24,000 nucleotides of DNA from Nanobdellota archaeon (GCA_034722435.1 JAYENX010000024.1:17494-41493), one strand, 5' to 3'; positions 5,323 to 22,626 are shown, counted from the stretch's first letter. The notes: generated from the letters alone by a model not told the origin. Translations and numbers: made by a program.

Positions 5323-5521
5323 GTAAACGTCTCATTCTTGATAATTTATTACTAAATGCCTTTCGTAATGCTTTTTCATTTATGTAAACTAATTGAGATA
5401 TTTCATCATATTCATCCCCATACTTTTCGTACTCAGTCAAAATAAAACCTATATCTTTTTCCCATCTTCCAATTAACATAAATGGTTCCATTTCTTCTTT
5501 TCTTATTAATATTGAATTCAT
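5315..5521 (-). CDS. Small soluble hypothetical protein (68 aa)
   Basis: Track ORF. AAGGAG lies ~10 nt upstream and there is an 8-nt overlap (ATGATTAA) with the downstream gene. It is the only non-exported product in the operon. Confidence 0.6.
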   Translation of the reverse strand: MNSILIRKEEMEPFMLIGRWEKDIGFILTEYEKYGDEYDEISQLVYINEKALRKAFSNKLSRMRRLHD

Positions 5522-5590
5522 TTCCTTTTTCTCCTTGTTCTTTTTTGAAAATCTTATACTTTAGTGTTATTTGTTTTGGTAAATTTATCT

Positions 5591-7438
5591 TTAAGTCTGT
5601 GCCCCAACCACTGATCCATCAGTGTCAGATGTAGGTACACTATTTTTTATTCTTAAATCGCCTGTTGAATCTATCCAAATGTGATAATTCCCAAGTATTA
5701 GTGTTACATTTTCATTTACACTATCTTCTCTCCTAACTCTAAACTTGTTTGTCCCATCATGAAGTATAGCTATACTATTTTGCACATCTGCTACTTTTTG
5801 GTCAATAACAATTGCTGGTTTTGTTGTTGATTCTGAATCAATATATAATGAATTTCCATTCCCATTCTGGTCAATGAATATTCCGCTACCTGTGCCATCT
5901 TGTTGAATCTTTAAAGCATTTTGATCGTCACCAGAGTTATCATTAACTACATTCATTAAAGCTCCCGCTGTGTTCGTACTATCCAAATCTCTATAAAATA
6001 AATTAGTTCCATCTGAACTTGTTTGATCACGATTTAATCTTACCACTTCTGCATTTCCATTTCTTGCAAGAATCATCATAGTATTTGTAGAGTCTGAATT
6101 TTCAATAGAAAATGTTGTGCCACCAACTTCTTCTGAGTCAATACGCAATGCGGTGCCATTCCCATTTTGGTCAAGAAATATTCCATCACCTGTACCATCT
6201 TGCTTTACTCCGAGTGCATTGCCTGTAGCGCCAGTATTATCTACTGAAATGCCAACTAATCCGTCAATTCCTGCACCTGTAAACGATCCACTTGCACTAT
6301 CAGAATAAAATGTTGCTGCATTACCCGTTGTTAATGAATTTCCTTGAATTACCAATCCACCCGATTTATAAAATGAATCACCAGTTGTTGCATCGGTGTC
6401 AATATATACCGATTTGTCATTTTCGTCAGGATAAATTGATATTGGATTATCAAATACATACTTACCCGCACCACTATATGTCATAATGTCAGATGTTGAA
6501 TTGTATGTCATCTCAGCAACTCCTGTCAATAATTCACCATTTGCTTGATTAACTGTCGATATTAATGCTACTGATGCTTGATCACTTTCTTTATCTGTAA
6601 TTGCGAAAGTTCCCTCAAACAGTGCAAATCTATTTGGTATAATTGGCGACTTGTCGTCTGAATCGAAACTGAGCATTGGATATTCATAATAATTATTATC
6701 TGCACCACCAGTTATCAATGAAAAATTAATTGGCATTGTTGTAATATTGATTAATCCTGTATTATCAATGTAAACATCTCCATCAACTTCAAGTTTTGCT
6801 GCTGCTATTCCTGTTCCTATCTTAACATTTCCTGATGGCATAATCCTCATTGCTTGAGTGCCATTTATGTGCATTATATACTTTGCTGCATGCATCCATA
6901 GATTATTATAAGGCACATCATCAGTTGGATCTCTGAAAAATAATGAAAATACATTATTATTTGAATTAAATCCACCACCCATTGCACCATCATAAGTCCC
7001 TCGTTGCTCTCCCAACCAGAATCCATCACCAGATGTTTTTCTTACATGCAATGGAGCTAGAGGGTTATCAGTTCCTATTCCTACCCATCCGCTAGGCGTT
7101 ATTTTCATTATTTGATCCGATGTAGAATTGTAGAATCTGTATCGATTTGCATAAAATTGCATTTCCTTCATTGTATTATCAATATCCCTTGACATAATAG
7201 CAGCAACACCATTATTTTGATTTAGTGCTATTGCAAGTCCGGCAGGGGTTGTTCCGTTTGCAAAGAACCCAATATTTGTTTTTGAGTCATAAGCTGTAGT
7301 GTATAGCTTATATTCTGTGTTTCCTTCTATCTTTGATCCTATTCCTATTTCAGAATCTCCAATATATGTATAAGCTGTTACACTTAAACATGCAAGTATC
7401 GTTATAATTAGTATCATTGCTGCTTTTGTAATTTTCAT
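5591..7438 (-). CDS. Tail-fibre-like / receptor-binding-type secreted protein, 615 aa
   Basis: It has a signal peptide (MKITKAAMILIITILACLSVTA). It carries two copies of the fibre-type motif PSG[NW]V[GK]IGT...L[HE]V (residues ~115-134 and ~201-224). It also has two copies of QDGTGxGIFxDQNGNGxxLxIDSE. The C-terminus is WIDSTGDLRIKNSVPTSDTDGSVVGAQT. From memory these motifs recur in phage and archaeal-virus fibre proteins. Confidence 0.9.
   Translation of the reverse strand: MKITKAAMILIITILACLSVTAYTYIGDSEIGIGSKIEGNTEYKLYTTAYDSKTNIGFFANGTTPAGLAIALNQNNGVAAIMSRDIDNTMKEMQFYANRYRFYNSTSDQIMKITPSGWVGIGTDNPLAPLHVRKTSGDGFWLGEQRGTYDGAMGGGFNSNNNVFSLFFRDPTDDVPYNNLWMHAAKYIMHINGTQAMRIMPSGNVKIGTGIAAAKLEVDGDVYIDNTGLINITTMPINFSLITGGADNNYYEYPMLSFDSDDKSPIIPNRFALFEGTFAITDKESDQASVALISTVNQANGELLTGVAEMTYNSTSDIMTYSGAGKYVFDNPISIYPDENDKSVYIDTDATTGDSFYKSGGLVIQGNSLTTGNAATFYSDSASGSFTGAGIDGLVGISVDNTGATGNALGVKQDGTGDGIFLDQNGNGTALRIDSEEVGGTTFSIENSDSTNTMMILARNGNAEVVRLNRDQTSSDGTNLFYRDLDSTNTAGALMNVVNDNSGDDQNALKIQQDGTGSGIFIDQNGNGNSLYIDSESTTKPAIVIDQKVADVQNSIAILHDGTNKFRVRREDSVNENVTLILGNYHIWIDSTGDLRIKNSVPTSDTDGSVVGAQT
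5831..6217 (-). repeat. Internal duplication in the fibre-like gene (units at 5831-5920 and 6128-6217)
   Basis: The protein units ALGVKQDGTGDGIFLDQNGNGTALRIDSEE and ALKIQQDGTGSGIFIDQNGNGNSLYIDSES lie ~100 aa apart. The similarity is also visible at DNA level (ccattcccatt.tggtcaa..aatattcc...cctgt.ccatcttg). Confidence 0.8.
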
Positions 7439-7443
7439 TGTTG

Positions 7444-8043
7444 TTACCCCTCCATTTGTGATAATAGTACTAATCTACCATTATACATATTGTCTCTTGT
7501 ATATATTTCTATCTGATCTTGTGAACACTGAATTAAAAACAATGATACTCCATTTTTGAAGTGCCATTTTGCTGCTTCTGTGTCACCCATCCATATTCTA
7601 TCTCTACATGGACCATTAGGATGATTATGAATTAATGCCATTTCATTGCATTTTCCTATTGATACAAAATTACTTTCTCCCTCATGTAAACTTTCAATCT
7701 TGTCTAAATATATTGTTGCGTTTCCTTTTGTCCAATCGTCAACATCTGTTTCATGCGAGAAATCTCCCTTTATGCATGCAGCATATTCTGAATCTAAATG
7801 CTCGTTCCATTGATTCCTTAATTCATCTGCTAATCTATCACGCATAATTATCTTTATATTTGGCGAATACATTGCTCCTGTAACATTATCATCATTACTT
7901 AAAAAATCATAATTAAATGGTATATATACAACCCTTGTTTCTATCCATCCCATCTGATTCAAAAGACAAAATCCCAAAATAATTATTCCACATACTATCA
8001 AGAAAAATAGTATGAAATAATCAAATTTTGTCAATCTTGTCAT
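7444..8043 (-). CDS. N-terminally membrane-anchored protein, 199 aa, with JAB/MPN(RadC)-like HNHPNG motif (tentative metalloprotease fold)
   Basis: A TM helix is present (FDYFILFFLIVCGIIILGFCLL). EYAACIKG lies ~53 residues upstream of ALIHNHPNGPCRDRIWMGD. The His-x-His-Pro and upstream Glu-x-x-x-Cys pattern resembles JAMM/RadC. The canonical Ser-x-x-Asp spacing is not satisfied. There are ATGA overlaps on both sides. Confidence 0.85.
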   Translation of the reverse strand: MTRLTKFDYFILFFLIVCGIIILGFCLLNQMGWIETRVVYIPFNYDFLSNDDNVTGAMYSPNIKIIMRDRLADELRNQWNEHLDSEYAACIKGDFSHETDVDDWTKGNATIYLDKIESLHEGESNFVSIGKCNEMALIHNHPNGPCRDRIWMGDTEAAKWHFKNGVSLFLIQCSQDQIEIYTRDNMYNGRLVLLSQMEG

Positions 8044-10295
8044 TTCTTTTTCCTCATGAATATAAAATACGATGACAAAGCAAACAACAGTATCATTGTT
8101 GCTCCATATATCATATAATTGTTAATATTTTTATCTCCGACTGAATAGTCTTGATTTTCAATTATTTGTCTTAATTGTGCAACTAATTCTTTTTCTCTTT
8201 CTAGTGAGTCTGCATACTCAGCAATAAGTGCTTCTTTTTCTTCCAATGTTATTCTTAAGTTTGCAACAATTTCTGTAGTATCTGCAAGATTCACTTCCAA
8301 TTCTCTTATTAATTGCTTCATTTCGTTATTTGTCAATTTTAAATCACTAATTAATCTTGACATCTCTTCATTACTAAGCTCGAGCTGCATAATTAATTCT
8401 GCTTGTTGTGCAATATTCAGATTAAGGTTTCGTATTAACTCTGCTTGTTCTTCGACTTCTAATTCTAGTTCAGAAATCAAATCCGCTTGCTTTCCGATGT
8501 TATCATACAACTCTTCAATTATCCTTGCTTGTTCTGCAAGTGTTATCTCCATTCCTTGTATAATATTTGCTTGTTCTGATACCTTTGTTGATAATGTTGA
8601 TATAATAACTGCATCTTCTGCTATTGTAAGATTTAATTGTGAAATAATTTCACCTTGCTTTCCAAATGACACTTCCATTTCTGCAATTAATTCAGCTTGT
8701 CTCTCATTTTCTACCTCAAGTTGACTTATTAGTGCAGCTTTTATTGCCAAATTATTTGTAAGCTGATTAATCAAATCTGCTTGTTCAGCGATATTTTGCG
8801 TCAACTCTTCAATGTATATTGCTTGTTGCTCTACTGTTTGTGAAAACTCTTGTATCATTGTTGCTTGTTCTGCAATAGTTAATTCTAATTCTTCCATAAT
8901 TGCTACTTGATTAGCAATATTTTGTGTCAAACCTGCAATTATTTGAGCTTGCTCATCAACTCTAGTTGATAATTGTTCAATTAATGATGCCTGCTCTTGT
9001 ACCTCTAAATTCATTGCAGCAATTATTGCTCCCTGCTCTTCAAGTGTTATCTCTAGATTTGATATTATAATAGCCTGCTCATCTGTATTTGTTGTCAACT
9101 CTTGTATCAACATTGCTTGTTCTTCAATATTTAATTCAAGTTGAGATATAATTTCTGCTTGCTCTTCTTTAATTAATGTTAATTGATTAATTATTGCTGC
9201 TTTTTCTGCTATTGTTCCCTCAAGTCTATTTATTGCTTCAATTTTACTTGCAATGTCTGTATTTAGTACATCTAGATACCCTCTAATGTAGTCTTGACAT
9301 ATGAGATAATTACTTATTCCTGCTTGTTTACATATTTCTGGCAATTCTGGATTTATACATTGATGTTCAATAATTACAGCCGCATCGTCACATACTAATT
9401 GCTCACATATCGCTTCTTGTTGTGATTTTTTTGAGCACACTTCTTCTTCTTGACAATCTGCATTCTTTGAACATTCAATATTACTTTTGTATAGAGGCTT
9501 TTCGTCCCATTCTGTTCCTGCTGCTGTCCACGCCCAATCTCTACCATTTGAATCGAAATCAAAACATACCATGTGTAGATGGTCAATTGTTGCATAATCT
9601 GTAAGATCTAGAGTATGATCTTTATTTGCTGATATTTTTTTATGATAATTTCTACATCCACTTTTATCACAATTTGCGTGATTCCAAAATGAATTCCAAT
9701 CACCTACATTTTGTGTATAAATATATGCCTTATCTCCTTTACACTTGTAGTAAAAAGGATATTTTGATGATACGTATGATTTTCCATTATATTCGTCATA
9801 ATACAAAGGTCCATAGTAGTTTTTTGCTACTGCTTTTGCAGATCCATAAGATGCCTCAGAAAAATAGCACCCTTCATAATTTCCATATGCATCGCAATTC
9901 CCATACTGTGTTTCTTCTTCATAATCATCCTCATCTTCTAACTCACATTTATCGAAATATGTTGTGTATCCTTCATTTCTGCATGCATCACGTCCTTCAT
10001 CTGTATAACATATCTGGTATGACCCATCTGCGCAAGGTAATGATCCGGGACTACTACCACCATATATGTATACTGTCTCACCCTCATCCAATATACTATC
10101 AACTTGAGACGCAGAGCATGTGAATTTATCTGCATATGGTCCGTTTGGATCTGTACAATATCTACCTGTAGTTTCTAATGCTTCCCAATTCCAAAATTCC
10201 CACCAATTCGGTCTGTCATATACTGTTTCTGCTTGTACAGATACCAACATTATAAAAATTAATGACAAAATTGCAATCAGTCTTAGCATTTTCAT
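8040..10295 (-). CDS. Anchored stalk protein, 751 aa: signal peptide, ~320-aa Cys/aromatic-rich head, ~364-aa coiled coil of 14-residue repeats, C-terminal TM anchor
   Basis: The signal peptide is MKMLRLIAILSLIFIMLVSVQA/E. There are about 20 Cys in residues 47-333. Residues 344-707 are strictly 14-periodic. The C-terminus is NYMIYGATMILLFALSSYFIFMRKKK. Confidence 0.92.
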   Translation of the reverse strand: MKMLRLIAILSLIFIMLVSVQAETVYDRPNWWEFWNWEALETTGRYCTDPNGPYADKFTCSASQVDSILDEGETVYIYGGSSPGSLPCADGSYQICYTDEGRDACRNEGYTTYFDKCELEDEDDYEEETQYGNCDAYGNYEGCYFSEASYGSAKAVAKNYYGPLYYDEYNGKSYVSSKYPFYYKCKGDKAYIYTQNVGDWNSFWNHANCDKSGCRNYHKKISANKDHTLDLTDYATIDHLHMVCFDFDSNGRDWAWTAAGTEWDEKPLYKSNIECSKNADCQEEEVCSKKSQQEAICEQLVCDDAAVIIEHQCINPELPEICKQAGISNYLICQDYIRGYLDVLNTDIASKIEAINRLEGTIAEKAAIINQLTLIKEEQAEIISQLELNIEEQAMLIQELTTNTDEQAIIISNLEITLEEQGAIIAAMNLEVQEQASLIEQLSTRVDEQAQIIAGLTQNIANQVAIMEELELTIAEQATMIQEFSQTVEQQAIYIEELTQNIAEQADLINQLTNNLAIKAALISQLEVENERQAELIAEMEVSFGKQGEIISQLNLTIAEDAVIISTLSTKVSEQANIIQGMEITLAEQARIIEELYDNIGKQADLISELELEVEEQAELIRNLNLNIAQQAELIMQLELSNEEMSRLISDLKLTNNEMKQLIRELEVNLADTTEIVANLRITLEEKEALIAEYADSLEREKELVAQLRQIIENQDYSVGDKNINNYMIYGATMILLFALSSYFIFMRKKK
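8175..9266 (-). repeat. 26 tandem 42-nt (14-codon) diverged coding repeats, consensus roughly L-x-L-x-I-x-E-Q-A-x-L-I-x-x
   Basis: I hand-parsed residues 344-707 into consecutive 14-mers with no indel: LNTDIASKIEAINR, LEGTIAEKAAIINQ, LTLIKEEQAEIISQ, LELNIEEQAMLIQE, ... LRITLEEKEALIAE, YADSLEREKELVAQ. The register was checked against the DNA (L344 = 9266..9264). Confidence 0.9.
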
Positions 10296-10612
10296 TCTGT
10301 TCCTACACCCGTTTGTACATTCTCACTTGTTCCTTGACTATCTGCCCTGTAATTTTCATCAAATTCATAGTCAATTTCTTGACCATTTATGCATGCTATA
10401 TAGTTTTGGCTATGATATTCTACTGAGCAATCACTATATCCATCACATACATATGCGCACTTTTCCATTGATTCGCACAATATAATATTTTTACAACTAA
10501 TTTTATCGTCTTCGTTTATTTGTCCCGTAATATCAAAATACTGATTAGCTGTAAAAATAGCTAAAATTGCTAATAGTGCTATAACTCCCAGTATTATTGC
10601 ATTTTTCTTCAT
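10292..10612 (-). CDS. Small secreted Cys-rich protein (106 aa from internal ATG)
   Basis: I trimmed the track ORF 10292..10663 to the ATG at 10612. That ATG forms an ATGA overlap with the upstream stop and yields a clean signal-type N-terminus (MKKNAIILGVIALLAILAIFTA). The short acidic mature part has 6 Cys. Confidence 0.75.
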   Translation of the reverse strand: MKKNAIILGVIALLAILAIFTANQYFDITGQINEDDKISCKNIILCESMEKCAYVCDGYSDCSVEYHSQNYIACINGQEIDYEFDENYRADSQGTSENVQTGVGTE

Positions 10613-11715
10613 ACAAATAACCCCGTGAAGAATGATACTATTGCATTCCACCACTTTGCCCAAAATGGCAACACTTCTGGATCTGTCTCAGGTATGTTTT
10701 CTTCTGGTTCGCCAATAAAATCTCTCTTAATAAATTCAGCAGCCTTTTCACATAATGTTAAATCTTCATAAAATGTTTGATCTATCGCATCGCTTTGTAA
10801 TATTTGTACACATTTTGCGTCTGATAACACATCATTTTCGTATACTCTTTCTACGATATATCCACTTAGTTGCTCTGGTGGGCTATCTGGTGGCTCATCT
10901 GGCACTTCTGGTGGGTTTTCAGGTGGCTCAGGTGGTGTATCTGGTGGATCGTTTGGATCCACTTCACTTTCTGGTTCTGCACAGTTATGCCATCCTGTCT
11001 TTGCTGTGCTTGTTTCTGTTCCTTCTATTACATATCCCGGATCGCATACAGTTCTATATTCCTGTAAGACTCTCTGACTACATAATGGTGCATCACCGTA
11101 TTTAGTACATGCTCTCTGCTGTAAATCTGCATGATATGCTGTGTCGGTTGTTATCCATCTATCACAAAAATCAGTAGGACAATCCGTTATTCCAACATTG
11201 AAGTTTGTACATTCATCTCCAATTAATGATCCTGATGTTTCCCTGATTGTGTAACATAATTTGTATTCTCCTGATGTTATTGGTGCATTAAACTCGCTTA
11301 CAGTATTCAAATTTACTGACTTTCCATATGAACTACATAGATCTGGTCCGAATAGACTACATCCTAATGCATAACTTAGCGGATATCTGAAATCCCAACT
11401 ATTCAACACCTGATTATTTCTGTCATAAAGTCTCATCGTTGCCTCTTTTATTCCATCAAACTGAGGAATTGATATAACCAAATCAACATCTACTAGTTCG
11501 CCCGGATCTGGGTTAGATTCTGATAAAAATATTGCAAACATTGATCCTTCTATATTTCCCTTTGACACCTTTGTACATACTACTTCTTCATTTTCTCCAA
11601 GTTCACAGTGCTCTCCTACAGTTGAAAATGTACCTGCTAGATATAATGTTGATATTATTGCAGTTAATAATAATATGCCAATTAAAATCATTGTTTTGTC
11701 AATTTTTTTCATCAT
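10609..11715 (-). CDS. Cys-rich membrane-anchored protein, 368 aa, with Pro-rich linker and hydrophobic C-terminus
   Basis: The N-terminal leader MMKKIDKTMILIGILLLTAIISTLYLAGTFSTVG is paralogous to that of the 572-aa protein. It has 14 Cys and the linker DPNDPPDTPPEPPENPPEVPDEPPDSPPE. The C-terminus is LPFWAKWWNAIVSFFTGLFV. Confidence 0.9.
   Translation of the reverse strand: MMKKIDKTMILIGILLLTAIISTLYLAGTFSTVGEHCELGENEEVVCTKVSKGNIEGSMFAIFLSESNPDPGELVDVDLVISIPQFDGIKEATMRLYDRNNQVLNSWDFRYPLSYALGCSLFGPDLCSSYGKSVNLNTVSEFNAPITSGEYKLCYTIRETSGSLIGDECTNFNVGITDCPTDFCDRWITTDTAYHADLQQRACTKYGDAPLCSQRVLQEYRTVCDPGYVIEGTETSTAKTGWHNCAEPESEVDPNDPPDTPPEPPENPPEVPDEPPDSPPEQLSGYIVERVYENDVLSDAKCVQILQSDAIDQTFYEDLTLCEKAAEFIKRDFIGEPEENIPETDPEVLPFWAKWWNAIVSFFTGLFV
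10870..10977 (-). repeat. Low-complexity Pro/Glu/Asp linker coding region (degenerate TCTGGTGG-type repeats on the plus strand)
   Basis: Residues 247-282 are EPESEVDPNDPPDTPPEPPENPPEVPDEPPDSPPEQ. The plus strand shows reiterated ctggtgg/caggtgg units. Confidence 0.8.
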
Positions 11716-12557
11716 ACATCACCCGATAATATTATCCCTATCTTATTTAGTGCTCCTCCAAATATGACCAAAAGTATGAGTGTAATTATCCAACCAATTT
11801 GAAAAAAGTTTTGTGTAATTACTCTATATGCCTCTCCAACTCCATACACTGCTAGATTATTTCCAACATGTGCACCAAAACTAAATGTTGTAGTTATTGC
11901 TACATATTTTATCATATTAGCCCACTGATCCCCTTTGACTATAACAATCATAAGTGCTCTAAATATTATGGCTGCAATAATAAAAGCTGTGAATGCTAAT
12001 TTTCCAATATGGAATATTGCAAATGTTGTTCCTGCAATTGTTGCGATAATTGCTATTTGTAACCATATATTTGTGAATATTTTGAATTTTTTTCCTAACA
12101 AATCTAGAAGCAATTTTACAACGATTGGTATTGTGAACATCCAGAAAAATTCTTCTGCTATTGGTATGAGAAATGACGTAGATCCAAACTCTAACATTTT
12201 CGGCATTTGTCCTGAGACTGATGTTGCTAACTGATTTTGTGATATTGCAAATACTGATTTTTCGTATCCGCCTGTGAAAAATACCATTCCACCCCATGCA
12301 ACCAAACCAATCACAAATGATAAACATGCATCACTCCAACCACCCATATATCTTATTACGTTTTGTTTGAAAATTGTCTCACCTAATATTATAAGGATTG
12401 GTGCTGACAATAACATTGTTCCAAATATCAATAAATAGAATCCTGCTCTTATTGAATTGTTTTCGTGACCCCAGATACCCACCCAGATGAAGACAGCTAA
12501 TGCTATTACAAATAATGAAGTTATGAATGCTATTCCGCCTATGCCTTCATCTTTCAC
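11712..12557 (-). CDS. CPBP-family (CAAX protease/Abi-type) intramembrane glutamic metalloprotease, 281 aa
   Basis: Polytopic membrane protein with the three family motifs in the right order and spacing. They are IPIAEEFFW (EE at residues 135-136, nt 12150-12155), FAIFH (H183) and GAHVGNN (H230...N234). The Arg of the EExxxR motif is replaced by Trp. The start is GTG with GGTGAT 5 nt upstream. Confidence 0.85.
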   Translation of the reverse strand: MKDEGIGGIAFITSLFVIALAVFIWVGIWGHENNSIRAGFYLLIFGTMLLSAPILIILGETIFKQNVIRYMGGWSDACLSFVIGLVAWGGMVFFTGGYEKSVFAISQNQLATSVSGQMPKMLEFGSTSFLIPIAEEFFWMFTIPIVVKLLLDLLGKKFKIFTNIWLQIAIIATIAGTTFAIFHIGKLAFTAFIIAAIIFRALMIVIVKGDQWANMIKYVAITTTFSFGAHVGNNLAVYGVGEAYRVITQNFFQIGWIITLILLVIFGGALNKIGIILSGDV

Positions 12558-13875: not shown

Positions 13876-14445
13876 ATGAAAGGTATCATGTTTTTTGGAA
13901 AAATATTTGCGAGTAAGCTGCCTTTACTCAAAGTTGTGTTTATTCCTGCTATTGCGTGGGGAATTGTTATTATTGGTGTTCTAAACACATTATCTAAGAA
14001 GGGTTTTGGCGAAGCGATGATTGAGCTTGTTCAAAAATCATTAGCTTCCGAGTACACAATAAATCAAAATGTCACTCTTGCGATACAAAATCCTGAATTA
14101 TTTGGATTTATGCATTTTTTGGAAATTGTTTCTGCTGTCCTTATATTTTACTATCTAGTGAAGTGGATTACAAAAGCACAAATTGGTGATACTGGTGCAC
14201 AAGCATGGATGGGAGCTGCTCGATGGTCCATCTTAATTGTCATAATACTTGAAATAGCTGTAATATCAGTTACTAATCTAGATTTACAATTCTGGAATTA
14301 TTTTATTCCAATAAAAGATTCATTCTGGTATTTACTTATGAATTTCTATCATGTTGTTGATGCAACACCTATACTAACTTTTTTTGCGTCAAGTCCAAAT
14401 GTTGCTGAGATAAATCAATCAATTAATTTTACTGATTCTTTCTAA
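13876..14445 (+). CDS. Polytopic membrane protein, 189 aa, unknown function
   Basis: This is the only long ORF in this interval on either strand. It has four to five hydrophobic segments and is divergent from the structural operon. Confidence 0.8.
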   Translation: MKGIMFFGKIFASKLPLLKVVFIPAIAWGIVIIGVLNTLSKKGFGEAMIELVQKSLASEYTINQNVTLAIQNPELFGFMHFLEIVSAVLIFYYLVKWITKAQIGDTGAQAWMGAARWSILIVIILEIAVISVTNLDLQFWNYFIPIKDSFWYLLMNFYHVVDATPILTFFASSPNVAEINQSINFTDSF

Positions 14446-15846: not shown

Positions 15847-16032
15847 TCATATCCGCCCCACATACTTAGGAGATTTGCCTTTATTTCCTATTTTATCGCC
15901 ATTATATAGCTTAATTAATCTGCTTATTACATCGTCGTAAGTTTCGCCCATTACTCCTATTTTCTTAATATCTTCTGTTGTCGAAATACGTAACTTTACT
16001 GATGTTCGTGATTCTTCGTTATTGGTAGCCAT
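15847..16032 (-). CDS. Ribbon-helix-helix (CopG/VapB-antitoxin-like) DNA-binding protein, 61 aa
   Basis: TSVKLRISTTEDIKKIGVMGETYDDVISRLIKLY fits the beta-strand, helix, G-E-[ST]-x-x-D-V-I-x-x-L-I pattern that I recall from small archaeal RHH/antitoxin-like proteins. No PIN-type toxin follows it. Confidence 0.7.
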   Translation of the reverse strand: MATNNEESRTSVKLRISTTEDIKKIGVMGETYDDVISRLIKLYNGDKIGNKGKSPKYVGRI

Positions 16033-16547: not shown

Positions 16548-17465
16548 CTACATTTTCCCAATATCGTAATCTCCAAATTTACTATATGCTTTCATACCAC
16601 GATATGGAGACACCTCTATATAAATCTCTGATGTCTTAACACTTTCATGACCTAAATATGCACTAATTGAAAGTATATCCGCACCAGCATCAGCCATATG
16701 CGTAGCTTTTGTATGACGCATACAATGAGGTGAAACATCTCTTTGCAGTATCCTTTTTGTTGTTGTTTTAACTATTTCGTATAATCTGTGTCCTTTGTCA
16801 ACCCTTGCCTTTCCATCCCCTCTATTAAATTGAAAAAGACTAACATTTTTCGTTTGAATTTTACCTTCGTATATTTTATAGATTAATTTCCTCGATGTTT
16901 TGTTCAGATAAACCTCTCTAACTTTATTTCCCTTTCCAACAACTCTAATTTTGGCATATATTCCAGATTTAATTAGCTTCTTTTCTTCTGATTTTGTCCA
17001 TCTAATATCTTTAAATTTTATTCCTATCACTTCTGAACGTCTACATGCAGTATCATACAAAACACAAAATAATGCTTTCGTTTCTAAATCCTTTATCTTC
17101 TCAAACAAATCCCTCAATTCATCTCTACTCAATATTTTATTTTGCAACATTTTTCTTGATTTCAACGCATTTGTATACCTAGTTTTTGGTGGCTTTATGT
17201 GATCTATCAGGTCTGATTCATAATTATTTACAGTTTGAAGATACCATAGGTATGCCTTTATTGCAGAGTAGTGTATCATATTAGACTTTTTTCTAATTAG
17301 TTCATTGCAAACCAAAATTATCTCTTTTTTTGATTTACACATATGTATTTTCTCAATATCATTGTGCAAGAATCCAACGTATCTTTCTATTGTAGAAGGT
17401 GCGTATTTCTCGCCATCCGGCTTTTTAGCTTTCTGCATGAACTTTATGAAATTATTTATCTTCAC
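16548..17465 (-). CDS. int: Tyrosine recombinase / phage-type integrase (XerC/D-like), 305 aa, apparently intact
   Basis: The N-terminal core-binding-type region is YAPSTIERYVGFL...AIKAYLWYL. Catalytic motifs are in order: ACRRSEV (Arg), PHCMRHTKATH (HxxR), LGHESVKTSEIYIEV (His...Tyr nucleophile). The track start is a GTG at 17465, and an in-frame ATG lies at 17438. Confidence 0.95.
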   Translation of the reverse strand: MKINNFIKFMQKAKKPDGEKYAPSTIERYVGFLHNDIEKIHMCKSKKEIILVCNELIRKKSNMIHYSAIKAYLWYLQTVNNYESDLIDHIKPPKTRYTNALKSRKMLQNKILSRDELRDLFEKIKDLETKALFCVLYDTACRRSEVIGIKFKDIRWTKSEEKKLIKSGIYAKIRVVGKGNKVREVYLNKTSRKLIYKIYEGKIQTKNVSLFQFNRGDGKARVDKGHRLYEIVKTTTKRILQRDVSPHCMRHTKATHMADAGADILSISAYLGHESVKTSEIYIEVSPYRGMKAYSKFGDYDIGKM

Positions 17466-20303: not shown

Positions 20304-22022
20304 CTAAATGCTAAATAAATTCATTATCCATTTCACAATCATTGGAATAATTAAAAACAACGACACTACAACAAAAACTACGATTATTCCTTTTTGCCAA
20401 TCCTTTAGCTTTGTTTTTGATAAATATGCTAATGTCATAACACCTCCAATAATTGCTATGATTATTGCTGCAATTAGTAAAGGCTTGTTAAATTGTTCAC
20501 CATTACCAGAATTCTCTCCTCCTTTATTATTTTTACATACTGGATTACCATTGTTTGGTTCACAATATTGATCTACTCCACATGTTTTTATTACTGAAGT
20601 ATTCGTTCCTTCGTTGTTACACTGTTTTATTACTGCTAGTCCACCAATTTCAGAACAATACTTTCTATTTTTTTGACATACCTGTAGTGGATCTGCACAT
20701 GTGGCTATCTTAATTTTTTCCTCTTCACCTGCTGTTTCAAATGTTATCTCACATTCTCCTATTTCTTTTTGTGAAACATCGGAACTCAATTCAAGACTAA
20801 CACTATCTTCCTCATTAGCCTCCAGACTAAATTGAATTGACCTTGTTACTTCAAATTTGTCCCCACATTTTCCATATGCATTCCATGTACCTGCTTCCGT
20901 TCCTATATTTTTTACTGTTACGATAATCTCCCCTTTATCTCCGGTTTTGAAGCATTCACTTTCTCCATTAATAATTTTTAGGTCTGGTTTTGGTGTGTAT
21001 ATACCCAATTTATCAGCCTGTACAAACAATGTTATTGATGGGTTTTGTAGAGGATATTCAATATCCTTTCTTATAACAGCGTTATTTAATGATGATTTTT
21101 CATCTATAGTTCCAAATGTTTGTCTTGTTTTTGCATAGTTTGAATCTGCATTAATATCTCTGACAAATTCTTTTATTCCTTGCTCACTATAATCGTATGA
21201 ATTTCTGTTATATGAAAATTGATTTATTCCTGTTGGTGTCCATGCCTTGTATGCATTTGCAAAGTCTTCATATCTATCCTTACTTATTATACTCCACTGA
21301 CCATCATACATTGCTGTATATGGGGTTTCTGTAGAATAAGGACAGCTTTTCCCTAGATCATAGTTTCCGTTGTAAATAGCATACGTATACCTACCCATTC
21401 CTTGATTACTCTCTTCACTATCAATAGATATACTATCTGTACTCCCATCAGCATTTATGTTAATTGTAGCCTTTGTCCTTATATCTGCCCTGTCAAAAAA
21501 TCCCACTCCATTACGCTCTACTACATATGTTCCAACACATCTTGTTAATCCAACCTTTCTACTAGGTCCTTCTACATCCAACACAGATACACCACACCTT
21601 TCTGCAATTTGGTTGTACCACCAATTTTTATTGTTAAAATCCCCAGTTAAACAATTCCATGCACAAACGTCTAATTTTATTATCTCTTGTGCTTCAGTAT
21701 TTCTTGTTATTGGATATACACATTCTTGATTATCATATCTCACATTAATTGTTAGATCTCTTTGTGTTGTTTCTGAGCCTGTTTTATCGGCAATATCTTC
21801 TGATGTCACCGTTCCATAAGCCGATTGACTCAATCCACCTTGTACAATTGTCATAACCCATGCAGGTCCATTAAGATATGGTATGCTTGATTTTAATTCC
21901 ACCTCATCAAGAGATATTATTGTTCCTCCAATGATTGAAAATGTCCCTGTATACAACAATGCGGTTAATATTACAATAATTGCCAGAATTCCAATGATTA
22001 TGATGTTTTTGTTTAGTTTCAT
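20304..22022 (-). CDS. Cys-rich surface protein, 572 aa, N-terminal anchor/leader and two C-terminal TM segments
   Basis: The leader MKLNKNIIIIGILAIIVILTALLYTGTFSIIGG is paralogous to that of the 368-aa protein. It has 16 Cys, including 7 within the C-terminal ~55 residues of the ectodomain. It contains a CARDB/Ig-like-looking stretch GEIIVTVKNIGTEAGTW. The C-terminus carries LLIAAIIIAIIGGVMTLAYL and IIVVFVVVSLFLIIPMIV. Confidence 0.9.
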   Translation of the reverse strand: MKLNKNIIIIGILAIIVILTALLYTGTFSIIGGTIISLDEVELKSSIPYLNGPAWVMTIVQGGLSQSAYGTVTSEDIADKTGSETTQRDLTINVRYDNQECVYPITRNTEAQEIIKLDVCAWNCLTGDFNNKNWWYNQIAERCGVSVLDVEGPSRKVGLTRCVGTYVVERNGVGFFDRADIRTKATININADGSTDSISIDSEESNQGMGRYTYAIYNGNYDLGKSCPYSTETPYTAMYDGQWSIISKDRYEDFANAYKAWTPTGINQFSYNRNSYDYSEQGIKEFVRDINADSNYAKTRQTFGTIDEKSSLNNAVIRKDIEYPLQNPSITLFVQADKLGIYTPKPDLKIINGESECFKTGDKGEIIVTVKNIGTEAGTWNAYGKCGDKFEVTRSIQFSLEANEEDSVSLELSSDVSQKEIGECEITFETAGEEEKIKIATCADPLQVCQKNRKYCSEIGGLAVIKQCNNEGTNTSVIKTCGVDQYCEPNNGNPVCKNNKGGENSGNGEQFNKPLLIAAIIIAIIGGVMTLAYLSKTKLKDWQKGIIVVFVVVSLFLIIPMIVKWIMNLFSI

Positions 22023-22413: not shown

Positions 22414-22626
22414 CTACTTCACATATTGGTAAACTAGATAGCCTAGAGCATACAATCCTGCCAGACCTACTGCACCATACACTATACTCAGCACAACTTC
22501 TGGAAACCATTGTAGTAGAAATTCAACTAGATTCCACTTGAATACTCCCACAAGTCCCCAATTGAATGCACCAAGACCTACGAGTAACAATGCTATCTGA
22601 TCGTACCATTTCATTTTTCTTGCCAT
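22414..22626 (-). CDS. DUF378-family small membrane protein, 70 aa
   Basis: IALLLVGLGAFNWGLVGVF...VVLSIVYGAVGLAGLY matches the DUF378 signature as I remember it (iG.lNWGLvG ... riiY.lvGlsgly). Confidence 0.85.
   Translation of the reverse strand: MARKMKWYDQIALLLVGLGAFNWGLVGVFKWNLVEFLLQWFPEVVLSIVYGAVGLAGLYALGYLVYQYVK

Follow-up and report, generated by a model that had tools for sequence, protein, structure and literature searches.

The head-stalk-anchor architecture of surface proteins is of a known kind, represented by tetrabrachion, SlaB, the trimeric autotransporter adhesins and viral attachment stalks. Tetrabrachion, an S-layer protein found in Staphylothermus marinus, exposes its N-terminal domains outwards on a parallel coiled-coil stalk that is tens of nanometres long, with a C-terminal membrane anchor, and a segment of this stalk is a right-handed, four-stranded coiled coil of 11-residue repeats. 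SlaB of the Sulfolobales comprises a Sec signal, beta-sandwich domains, a trimeric coiled-coil stalk and a single C-terminal transmembrane (TM) helix; it is the product of a chromosomal core gene, has SlaA as its lattice partner, and its coiled coil is much shorter than the stalk described below and contains no 14-mer array. Trimeric autotransporter adhesins (TAAs), such as YadA, SadA and BadA, combine an outer-membrane beta-barrel anchor with stalk motifs in which Asn residues at core position d bind anions. Here, we analyse a 24,000-nucleotide stretch of DNA from a Nanobdellota archaeon (JAYENX010000024.1:17494-41493; hereafter, the window), in which one gene encodes a 751-aa protein (hereafter, the query) whose stalk, a predicted coiled coil of 26 uninterrupted 14-residue repeats, stands between a Cys-rich head and a membrane anchor. 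The query belongs to a family of length-variable stalks with dissimilar heads, and in two elements a gene of this family is found near a fusexin gene.

To our knowledge, HAP2, the gamete fusogen of eukaryotes, has no prokaryotic relatives other than the archaeal fusexins, and we know of no account of the means by which a cell or element with a fusexin locates its partner and keeps hold of it. Fusexins have been described in integrated archaeal mobile elements with XerC/D recombinases (Moi et al. 2022, PMC9259645). According to the same report, these elements carry genes of the conjugation type, namely HerA, VirB4 and TraG; an adhesin or tether is not mentioned there.

The query is a type I membrane protein made up of a signal peptide, a head, a neck, the stalk, a TM helix and a basic tail (Table 1). 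A previous reading of the window, made from the sequence alone and hereafter called the sequence-only reading, had proposed this order of head, stalk and anchor, and both the sequence and an AlphaFold2 (AF2) model agree with it. The translation of residues 344-707 parses into 26 consecutive 14-mers without a single break in register, as had been claimed. Identity autocorrelation of the stalk was 0.343, 0.333 and 0.345 at lags 14, 28 and 42, respectively, and only 0.098 at lag 7, with 0.181 as the highest identity at any lag in 1000 shuffles. The high value at lag 14 and the low value at lag 7 thus indicate that the repeat unit is a true 14-mer, beyond a mere heptad pattern. A fast Fourier transform of the hydrophobicity of the query stalk gave power peaks at periods of 3.50 and 2.0 residues, and neither this transform nor the autocorrelation contained an 11-residue or 3.67-residue signal. 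A beta-solenoid, as the L-x-L-x-I pattern and the period-2 power might suggest, was ruled out by the composition of the stalk and by its modelled helix.

Column counts over the 26 repeats placed Leu at position 1 in 21 of them, Ile, Leu or Val at position 5 in 20, Ala at position 9 in 17, Leu or Ile at position 11 in 23 and Ile at position 12 in 23. The hydrophobic positions named in the sequence-only reading (1, 5, 9 and 11-12) are therefore sound as far as they go; position 3, hydrophobic in about 15 of the 26 repeats, had been left out. The Gln at position 8 had been described as nearly invariant, a description that does not hold: it occupies 17 of the 26 query repeats (65%) and 56% of the repeats family-wide. 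Pro and Cys are absent from the query stalk. At the DNA level, a tandem-repeat search with TRF found nothing in the stalk region, the 42-nt units agree pairwise at a mean identity of 0.50, with 0.83 as the highest value, and five different codons encode the conserved Leu. Because the units have diverged and the Leu codons vary, the repeats are old and kept at the protein level. These data, together with the retention of the 14-residue phase in 137 homologues, support the earlier suggestion that selection has kept the periodicity and that recent slippage is not its source. N-glycosylation sequons (N at position 2, S/T at position 4) are not enriched in the repeat (227 observed vs 263 expected), and the query has one sequon in its stalk and none in its head. 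An antisense open reading frame (ORF) at 8497-8724 (+), within the stalk region, resembles antisense ORFs at two related loci, L002 and L008; it is a by-product of the conserved coding-strand repeats and not a gene.

Expressed as heptads, each unit places positions 12 (Ile) and 5 (Ile/Leu/Val) at core position a, positions 1 (Leu) and 8 (Gln/Lys) at core position d, position 9 (Ala) at e and position 11 (Leu/Ile) at g. In the query stalk, position a is 90% I/V/L and position d is Leu in 21 cases and Gln in 17; Leu and Gln alternate at d, where Met also occurs, which agrees with the polar Gln layer that had been postulated at every second heptad. A single heptad phase is maintained over residues ~376-743, and three canonical features of a heptad coiled coil, namely a 3.5-residue hydrophobic period, the expected a/d occupancy and a predicted helix without breaker residues, are present. 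There are no charged g-e' pairs in the query stalk, and its 71 D+E vs 20 K+R give a net charge of -51 per chain. A single alpha-helix domain was excluded by this charge composition and by the strong hydrophobic seam. A salt-in halophilic lifestyle was rejected as the cause of the charge, given that cytoplasmic proteins encoded in the window are basic (integrase, pI 9.8; helix-turn-helix (HTH) proteins, pI 9-10). As one continuous coiled coil, the stalk would measure 364 x 0.1485 nm = 54 nm. The full-length AF2 model, a single chain built from a 21-sequence alignment, is helical over residues 330-716, with predicted local distance difference test scores (pLDDT) of 45-80 in the stalk; a structure search with it retrieved nothing beyond long coiled coils of a generic kind, such as Rad50, chemoreceptors and MukB, with E values of at least 0.02.

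An exhaustive homology search against 1.84 billion cluster representatives returned 234 matches at E<=1e-3, of which 138 reached E<=1e-10 and 59 reached E<=1e-30. When scored with a matrix derived from the query repeats, 137 sequences among the 150 of these 234 matches listed, the query included, contained at least five in-phase 14-mers, with 6-51 units per protein and a median of 15. These sequences define a family, which only this exhaustive search brought to light. Its repeat spacings are multiples of 14 in nearly every protein, apart from a few that are odd multiples of 7 (21, 35, 49, 63) or stutter-like (18, 25). The consensus of 2236 repeats is L-[NET]-L-[TSN]-[ILV]-[EQA]-E-Q-A-[EQ]-[LI]-I-[NS]-[QEN], in which position 1 is Leu in 81% and Met in 13% and position 12 is Ile in 81% and Val in 11%; these repeats contain 0.01% Pro, 0% Cys and 2% Gly. 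A C-terminal TM segment followed by a K/R tail is present in 121 of the 137 members (median hydrophobic stretch, 19 residues; median tail, ~5 aa, 82% K/R), and no conserved sortase-like sorting motif precedes the TM segment in the family C-termini. The heads span 200-1500 aa, are mutually dissimilar beyond sub-groups and have a median of 12 Cys, with an even count in 86%; a few contain CBM96 or LamG-type domains. Four stalk-less relatives (P0123, P0145, P0146 and P0149) keep the head and the C-terminal TM anchor, from which the stalk can be seen as a spacer module open to insertion. We define this "EQA 14-mer stalk" family by an N-terminal signal or TM segment, a variable Cys-rich head, at least five in-phase 14-mers, a signature block (see below) and a C-terminal TM segment with a K/R tail, and the query holds all of these features.

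The repeat had not been recognised in the sequence-only reading, and it is indeed absent from Pfam, NCBIfam, PHROGs and PDB: searches with the query and with family profiles gave only generic coiled-coil noise (Med9, SMC, SNAREs, designed bundles). Among 66 family members, no Pfam family covers the stalk, and neither SlyX nor DUF16 matched at E<=1e-4; against PDB, the stalk profile retrieved only designed bundles and SNAREs, at E>=0.004. A word-indexed search found four relatives with the query, none with the head alone and one fragment with a 93-sequence stalk profile. Five outliers (P0130, P0135, P0139, P0142 and P0144) also have a related 14-residue unit, e.g., LNADVAEKAxQIEx or LNxTVNxQATTIxx, which they combine with Big_3_5 or HAD domains and not with the head-stalk-TM order; these sequences may point to a broader class of 14-mer coiled coils that has so far escaped recognition. 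In addition, at least 16 stalk-family members have a G[LIT]FS[VIL] motif directly after their N-terminal hydrophobic segment, including P0008, P0013, P0014, P0015, P0022, P0025 and P0026. The same motif occurs in the window fusexin (residues 25-31, 21930-21950) and in a 368-aa protein of the window (residues 27-33, 11617-11637); the query itself has an ordinary signal peptide. The motif may be a dedicated processing or sorting site.

Four atypical repeats within the stalk form a signature block, which the sequence-only reading had missed, together with the eight-Cys neck, the net charge of -51 and the integrase and fusexin setting. Its units, LTxNLxxKAxLVxQ, LxxENExQAxLIxx, MxLSFxxQGxIIxx and LNxTIxxDAxIIxx, are found in 109 of the 137 members (at least 24/56 identities in phase with the query), preceded by 2-13 and followed by 5-17 generic repeats. 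In the gap-free alignment A3 of 93 members, K36, L43, Q50, L53, D78 and I82 are invariant and N32, L33, A51, I54, M57, S60, F61 and Q64 are at least 90% conserved, figures that are somewhat inflated since the sequences were picked for block similarity. The deviant residues sit in the core, with Lys, Met and Asp on d and Asn and Phe on a. The invariant Lys (A3 column 36) and Asp (column 78) occupy equivalent core d positions, 42 residues apart, and a simple parallel coiled coil gives no account of them at d. Such a polar and bulky core key could be what a degenerate array needs against pairing out of register by multiples of 14 residues, and, if the core is parallel, Lys, Asn or Asp would form rings that offer binding sites for ions or a partner. 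The second half of the block is overlapped by a break in the AF2 helix (residues 548-577), which may be a hinge or an artefact of the model.

The head and the neck of the query hold all 20 of its Cys residues (residues 1-343), the number that had been estimated before. Signal peptide cleavage is expected after residue 22. The first part of the head (residues 23-125) is acidic, contains Cys and was modelled with a pLDDT of ~30 (25-125); residues 126-270 form a beta-rich core, with a pLDDT of 80-93 over residues 125-330. A head-only model reached a mean pLDDT of 89.6, and a fold search with it gave no significant match (best E value, 0.31 in PDB and 0.066 in BFVD). Eight Cys residues of the neck (C275, 281, 287, 297, 302, 313, 322 and 333) are invariant in alignments A1 (21 sequences) and A6 (18 sequences), and in both AF2 models the stalk helix begins within the neck, at residue 330. 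The C-terminal membrane anchor that had been postulated is well defined, with a hydrophobic segment, Y727-M747, directly followed by RKKK. An identical 751-aa protein is present on Logan contig SRR26901924_9833.

The resemblance to tetrabrachion, trimeric adhesins and viral fusion spikes suggested by the sequence-only reading holds for the architecture and not for their specific traits, since no 11-residue repeat, YadA-type anchor or HR1/HR2 pair of heptad repeats was found. As in tetrabrachion, outward N-terminal domains are followed by a long (here, predicted) stalk and a C-terminal anchor; unlike tetrabrachion, the stalk family has a period of 14 = 2 x 7, of the left-handed type, and no sequence similarity was detected in Pfam, NCBIfam or PDB. 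The signal, the beta-rich head, the predicted coiled coil and the single C-terminal TM helix recall SlaB, to which no homology was detected in Pfam, NCBIfam or PDB; the stalk family differs from it in its hypervariable Cys-rich heads and in its location on mobile-element-like contigs. With the TAAs, the family shares the head-stalk-anchor order, a repetitive stalk of variable length and a recurrent polar core layer (here, Gln at d once per 14 residues), but no YadA-type Pfam domain was detected in the query, and the family is anchored by a single TM helix that is followed by a K/R tail. Paramyxovirus HN/G stalks acting with F, the reovirus sigma1 fibre and Chlamydomonas gamete adhesion before HAP2 resemble the present case in that a long helical stalk with a receptor-binding head stands beside a separate fusogen (here, a fusexin of the class II/HAP2 type), a likeness that is pure analogy without homology; HN has type II topology, and stalk and fusexin genes were seen together in two loci only. 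TraA of Myxococcus has a variable recognition domain, a stalk of Cys-rich repeats without a coiled coil and a C-terminal MYXO-CTERM sorting tag, in contrast to the 14-mer array and TM helix of the stalk family. Compared by description, the two have in common a variable domain (in the stalk family, a putative recognition head), a Cys-rich region and a C-terminal anchor; TraA is a polymorphic surface receptor that, with TraB, provides kin recognition for outer membrane exchange (PMC12045341). SlyX (PF04102) and DUF16 (PF01519) were also compared: four of the outliers (P0130, P0135, P0139 and P0142) exceed the SlyX threshold with an L-N-x-x-V-x-x-Q-A-x-x-I-like unit, without the signature block and mostly without the head-stalk-TM order, and matches to DUF16 were likewise confined to distant outliers. 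The query had no SlyX match at E<=0.01 and no DUF16 match at E<=1e-4, only a sub-threshold one to NCBIfam PRK00736 (23.7 bits vs a cut-off of 72). What is new, then, is the sequence family, phased strictly at 14 residues, together with the signature block embedded in its stalk, the eight-Cys neck and the recurrent proximity of fusexin and CPBP-type protease genes.

The window has a GC content of ~0.33, and its substantial ORFs all lie on the minus strand except 13876-14445 (+). It is marked as part of an integrative element by the presence of a tyrosine recombinase, which matched the XerC, XerD and XerA models at E values of 1e-26 to 1e-32, all under the equivalog cut-offs. tRNA scans revealed no tRNA or attachment site in the window, and HerA, VirB4 and TraG were not detected among the window ORFs scanned; the window may hold only part of the element. 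The fusexin gene, on the same strand as the stalk gene and 10 kb away from it, encodes a protein that has 16 Cys, a signal-anchor at its N-terminus and TM segments at its C-terminus. Residues 35-530 of this protein matched positions 3-519 of the 610 in the Fsx1 model NF053506 (E 1.9e-29; 102.5 bits, cut-off 650), and PF10699 (HAP2-GCS1) was matched at E 3e-6, with 26.5 bits vs a cut-off of 27.4. By these profile matches, the 572-aa protein is a divergent Fsx1 homologue and not an equivalog. It is encoded in a low-GC (0.33) window and is far from the haloarchaeal fusexins. A Cys-module shared between the fusexin and the stalk heads was considered and discarded, as the pattern occurs in 12/137 heads and is absent from fusexins; likewise, jackhmmer linked the 368-aa protein to the window fusexin only through their similar N-terminal signal-anchors. 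Just upstream of the fusexin gene lies a gene for a 70-aa, two-helix DUF378 membrane protein (22414-22626 (-), E 6.5e-15), an arrangement also seen on Logan contig L009.

Among the related loci, the stalk gene is the best conserved gene, and its neighbours evolve fast. Locus L010 is a 22-kb contig binned as "Candidatus Saccharibacteria", a candidate phyla radiation bacterium, although the binning of a mobile contig is unreliable and Fsx1, zinc-ribbon matches and a weak DUF7557 match shared with L016 point to archaea. Its genes encode, in this order, a 335-aa N-anchored protein, a 632-aa Fsx1-like protein, a 478-aa Cys-rich membrane protein, a 692-aa stalk protein and a CPBP/Rce1-like protease. 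The Fsx1-like protein matched the NCBIfam Fsx1 model at E 1.4e-10 and the window fusexin at E 2e-6 by BLASTP, and the protease, encoded directly downstream of the stalk gene, matched PF02517 at E 4.9e-11, above the cut-off. As both the window and L010 carry stalk and fusexin genes, the two co-occur in two independent elements. At the other loci, tiny ORFs are numerous and genes encode homing endonucleases and large surface proteins of the LamG or beta-helix type, and Fsx1 models applied to candidate proteins of L006, L011, L013, L016 and L018 gave no match. Two genes upstream of the stalk gene of P0012, L018 encodes a membrane-active, zinc-dependent phospholipase C (PF00882, 5640-6629).

We tentatively read the query as a parallel, homo-oligomeric coiled-coil spike with a diversifying head that probably provides attachment or recognition for an element with a fusexin gene, a reading whose chance of being right we place a little short of even. 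The chains, most likely three and possibly two or four, would zip up in parallel and in register from the eight-Cys neck to the TM helix, with two non-equivalent heptads per 14-residue unit. The result would be a rigid, acidic, left-handed heptad coiled-coil rod of up to ~54 nm, holding a disulfide-stabilised, fast-evolving, beta-rich head off the membrane on a disulfide-knotted neck. The signature block would act as a unique key that sets the chain register and/or binds ions or a partner. Such a spike would capture the surface of a target cell, after which the much shorter fusexin could act, a logic akin to viral pairs of attachment and fusion proteins or to gamete adhesion followed by HAP2. 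A role in receptor binding or recognition is suggested because a conserved stalk carries swappable heads, and long-range attachment before fusion would be the simplest role because the gene stands near that of a fusexin. What we infer here thus comprises the oligomerisation, the extension, the role of the block, the adhesive function and the functional link to the fusexin. As for the number of strands, established coiled-coil rules favour three or more, given a g-a-d-e seam that is wide, with Ala at e and Leu/Ile at g, the Gln layers in the core and the absence of g-e' salt bridges; with low confidence, we lean to a trimer, and two or four strands are possible.

Several observations weigh against this reading. 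Ile at a, Leu at d and a conserved Asn at a constitute a classic dimer signature; because the stalk fits it, the trimer call is weak. The net charge of -51 per chain would hinder parallel association at low ionic strength, and Leu occupies the exposed f position in 45% of repeats family-wide, of which a simple parallel coiled coil gives no account. Structure searches recognised no binding fold in the head, and searches of a phage collection and of IMG/VR with block patterns found no family member. Moreover, the AF2 monomer has low-confidence breaks at residues 440-442 and 548-577, and its chain is folded back. An intramolecular antiparallel bundle, spectrin-like or of the hairpin type, would turn the 50-nm rod into a compact stalk of ~15-25 nm. 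The three helices of the monomer (330-439, 443-541 and 578-716), a hydrophobic face wide enough to serve several helices (positions 1, 3, 5, 9, 11 and 12) and weak PDB matches to designed antiparallel bundles (E 0.004-0.15) all agree with this fold. Nevertheless, the pLDDT of the breaks is <50, and the fold-back of monomers is a known AF2 artefact for oligomeric coiled coils; the stalk has no Pro and only 2% Gly for turns, and a repeat number that varies continuously from 6 to 51, with 2-13 generic repeats before the block and 5-17 after it, is a poor fit to segments of fixed length. We regard a bundle of this type as quite improbable.

The link to the fusexin is also open to question, since it holds in two of about six informative loci: no Fsx1-like gene was detected within ~10 kb of the stalk gene in L006 (10.8 kb covered), L018 (12.9 kb), L011 (22.6 kb covered, contig of 48 kb) or L016 (23 kb covered, contig of 43 kb). 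Its absence from these four would be natural for an ordinary envelope spacer or anchor like SlaB or tetrabrachion, which would determine how wide a pseudo-periplasm is, or raise a canopy or binding domain over the surface layer of the host itself, and have no functional connection with fusexins. The arrangement of signal peptide, beta domains, coiled coil and C-terminal TM helix is that of an S-layer anchor, the range of 6-51 repeats looks as though tuned to envelope thickness, and the neighbouring genes encode large secreted or surface proteins (LamG_3, beta-helix, DUF2341). We nevertheless hold a spacer to be unlikely, if a serious contender: the contigs are fast-evolving, strand-biased and mobile-element-like, with an integrase, homing endonucleases and tiny ORFs; among 185,579 representative genomes, the only match obtained with a narrow search pattern was L010; and hypervariable heads on a conserved stalk fit recognition better than a lattice. 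A class-I-like fusion protein or viral envelope spike, whose TM-proximal heptad repeats would refold to drive fusion, appears highly improbable. The type I topology of the query, the long heptad repeats beside the TM helix and the possible hinge in the signature block would suit such a protein, and the element may be viral, with its integrase, fibre-like proteins and many small ORFs. Yet the query has neither an N-terminal nor an internal hydrophobic segment resembling a fusion peptide, its array is uninterrupted instead of being an HR1/HR2 pair with a loop, a homologue of a dedicated fusogen is already encoded nearby, and no match was found in viral structure or sequence collections.

The genes around the stalk gene encode acidic secreted or membrane proteins, including, besides those listed in Table 1, a 551-aa secreted protein and the 368-aa Cys-rich protein. 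The 281-aa multi-pass protein has no Pfam match and is possibly a CPBP-type intramembrane protease, given its motifs; hhalign links it only weakly to the CPBP protease of L010 (E 0.0024, probability 12%). Its homologue in L008 (3603-4550) is encoded directly upstream of the stalk gene, and an unrelated multi-TM protein of 276-279 aa is encoded in the same position in L006 and L003. Residues 545-615 of the fibre-like 615-aa protein match the C-termini of Pectobacterium and Klebsiella phage tail fibres with 39-62% identity and E values down to 7e-7. The 199-aa protein bears a faint likeness (E 0.039) to the product of the gene in the same position in L008, which in turn matches that of L007 23-541 (E 4e-10). 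Finally, a small protein encoded at 15847-16032 (-) has a weak DUF7557 match (E 0.0013), as does a 41-aa protein of L016 (6317-6442), and from these matches a regulator common to stalk-bearing elements is possible.

Table 1. Features of the stalk gene, of other genes in the window and of the related locus L010
Feature	Position	Strand	Basis or remark
Whole gene, 751-aa type I membrane protein	8040..10295	(-)	ORF list and translation
Signal peptide MKMLRLIAILSLIFIMLVSVQA then ETVY, residues 1-22	10230..10295	(-)	Sequence reading; AF2 helix 2-25
Head, residues 23-270	9486..10229	(-)	AF2
Cys-rich neck, residues 271-343	9267..9485	(-)	Alignments A1 and A6
Stalk, 26 x 14-residue repeats, residues 344-707	8175..9266	(-)	Exact correspondence of residues and positions; predicted coiled coil
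Signature block, four atypical repeats, residues 512-567	8595..8762	(-)	Family conservation
Helix end and short linker, residues 708-726	8118..8174	(-)	AF2 helix to 716, coil 717-723
Transmembrane anchor, residues 727-747	8055..8117	(-)	Sequence; AF2 helix 724-750
RKKK cytoplasmic tail, residues 748-751	8043..8054	(-)	Positive-inside stop-transfer
Divergent fusexin (Fsx1/HAP2-GCS1-like), 572 aa	20304..22022	(-)	NCBIfam and Pfam
Tyrosine recombinase/integrase	16548..17465	(-)	PF00589 E 3e-22; phrog_1 integrase E 5e-32
Multi-pass membrane protein, 281 aa, EExxW / FxxFH / HxGNN motifs	11712..12557	(-)	L008 homologue E 6e-17
N-anchored protein, 199 aa, H-x-H-containing motif	7444-8043	(-)	Start overlaps stalk stop codon (ATGA)
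Secreted fibre-like protein, 615 aa	5591-7438	(-)	phrog_18345 tail fiber E 7.7e-7; Pfam Cap_depo
L010, consecutive genes from Fsx1-like protein to CPBP protease	5355-11609		Profile and BLASTP

In its boldest form, our attachment reading would make the stalk family the recognition and tethering partner of prokaryotic fusexins, that is, one half of a two-component adhesion-and-fusion machine on a mobile element, a proposal that we consider rather unlikely. Its polymorphic, disulfide-rich head would pick the partner cell and its 12-100 nm rod would span both envelopes; the signature block, as a register lock or as a hinge that binds ions or a partner, would then allow the rod to collapse or to hand over, leaving the HAP2-like fusogen free to merge the membranes. 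With length-variable stalks, swappable heads and a location near a fusexin gene in two elements, the family offers a concrete tether candidate for fusexins. At the same time, its strictly phased arrays of up to 51 14-mers with a regular Gln layer provide a model system for coiled coils, and the Lys, Asn, Phe and Asp residues in the core of the signature block bear on how long degenerate repeats avoid mis-registration. Should the link to fusexins be coincidental, the family would still be a sizeable, unannotated family of surface proteins built on the familiar head-stalk-anchor design.

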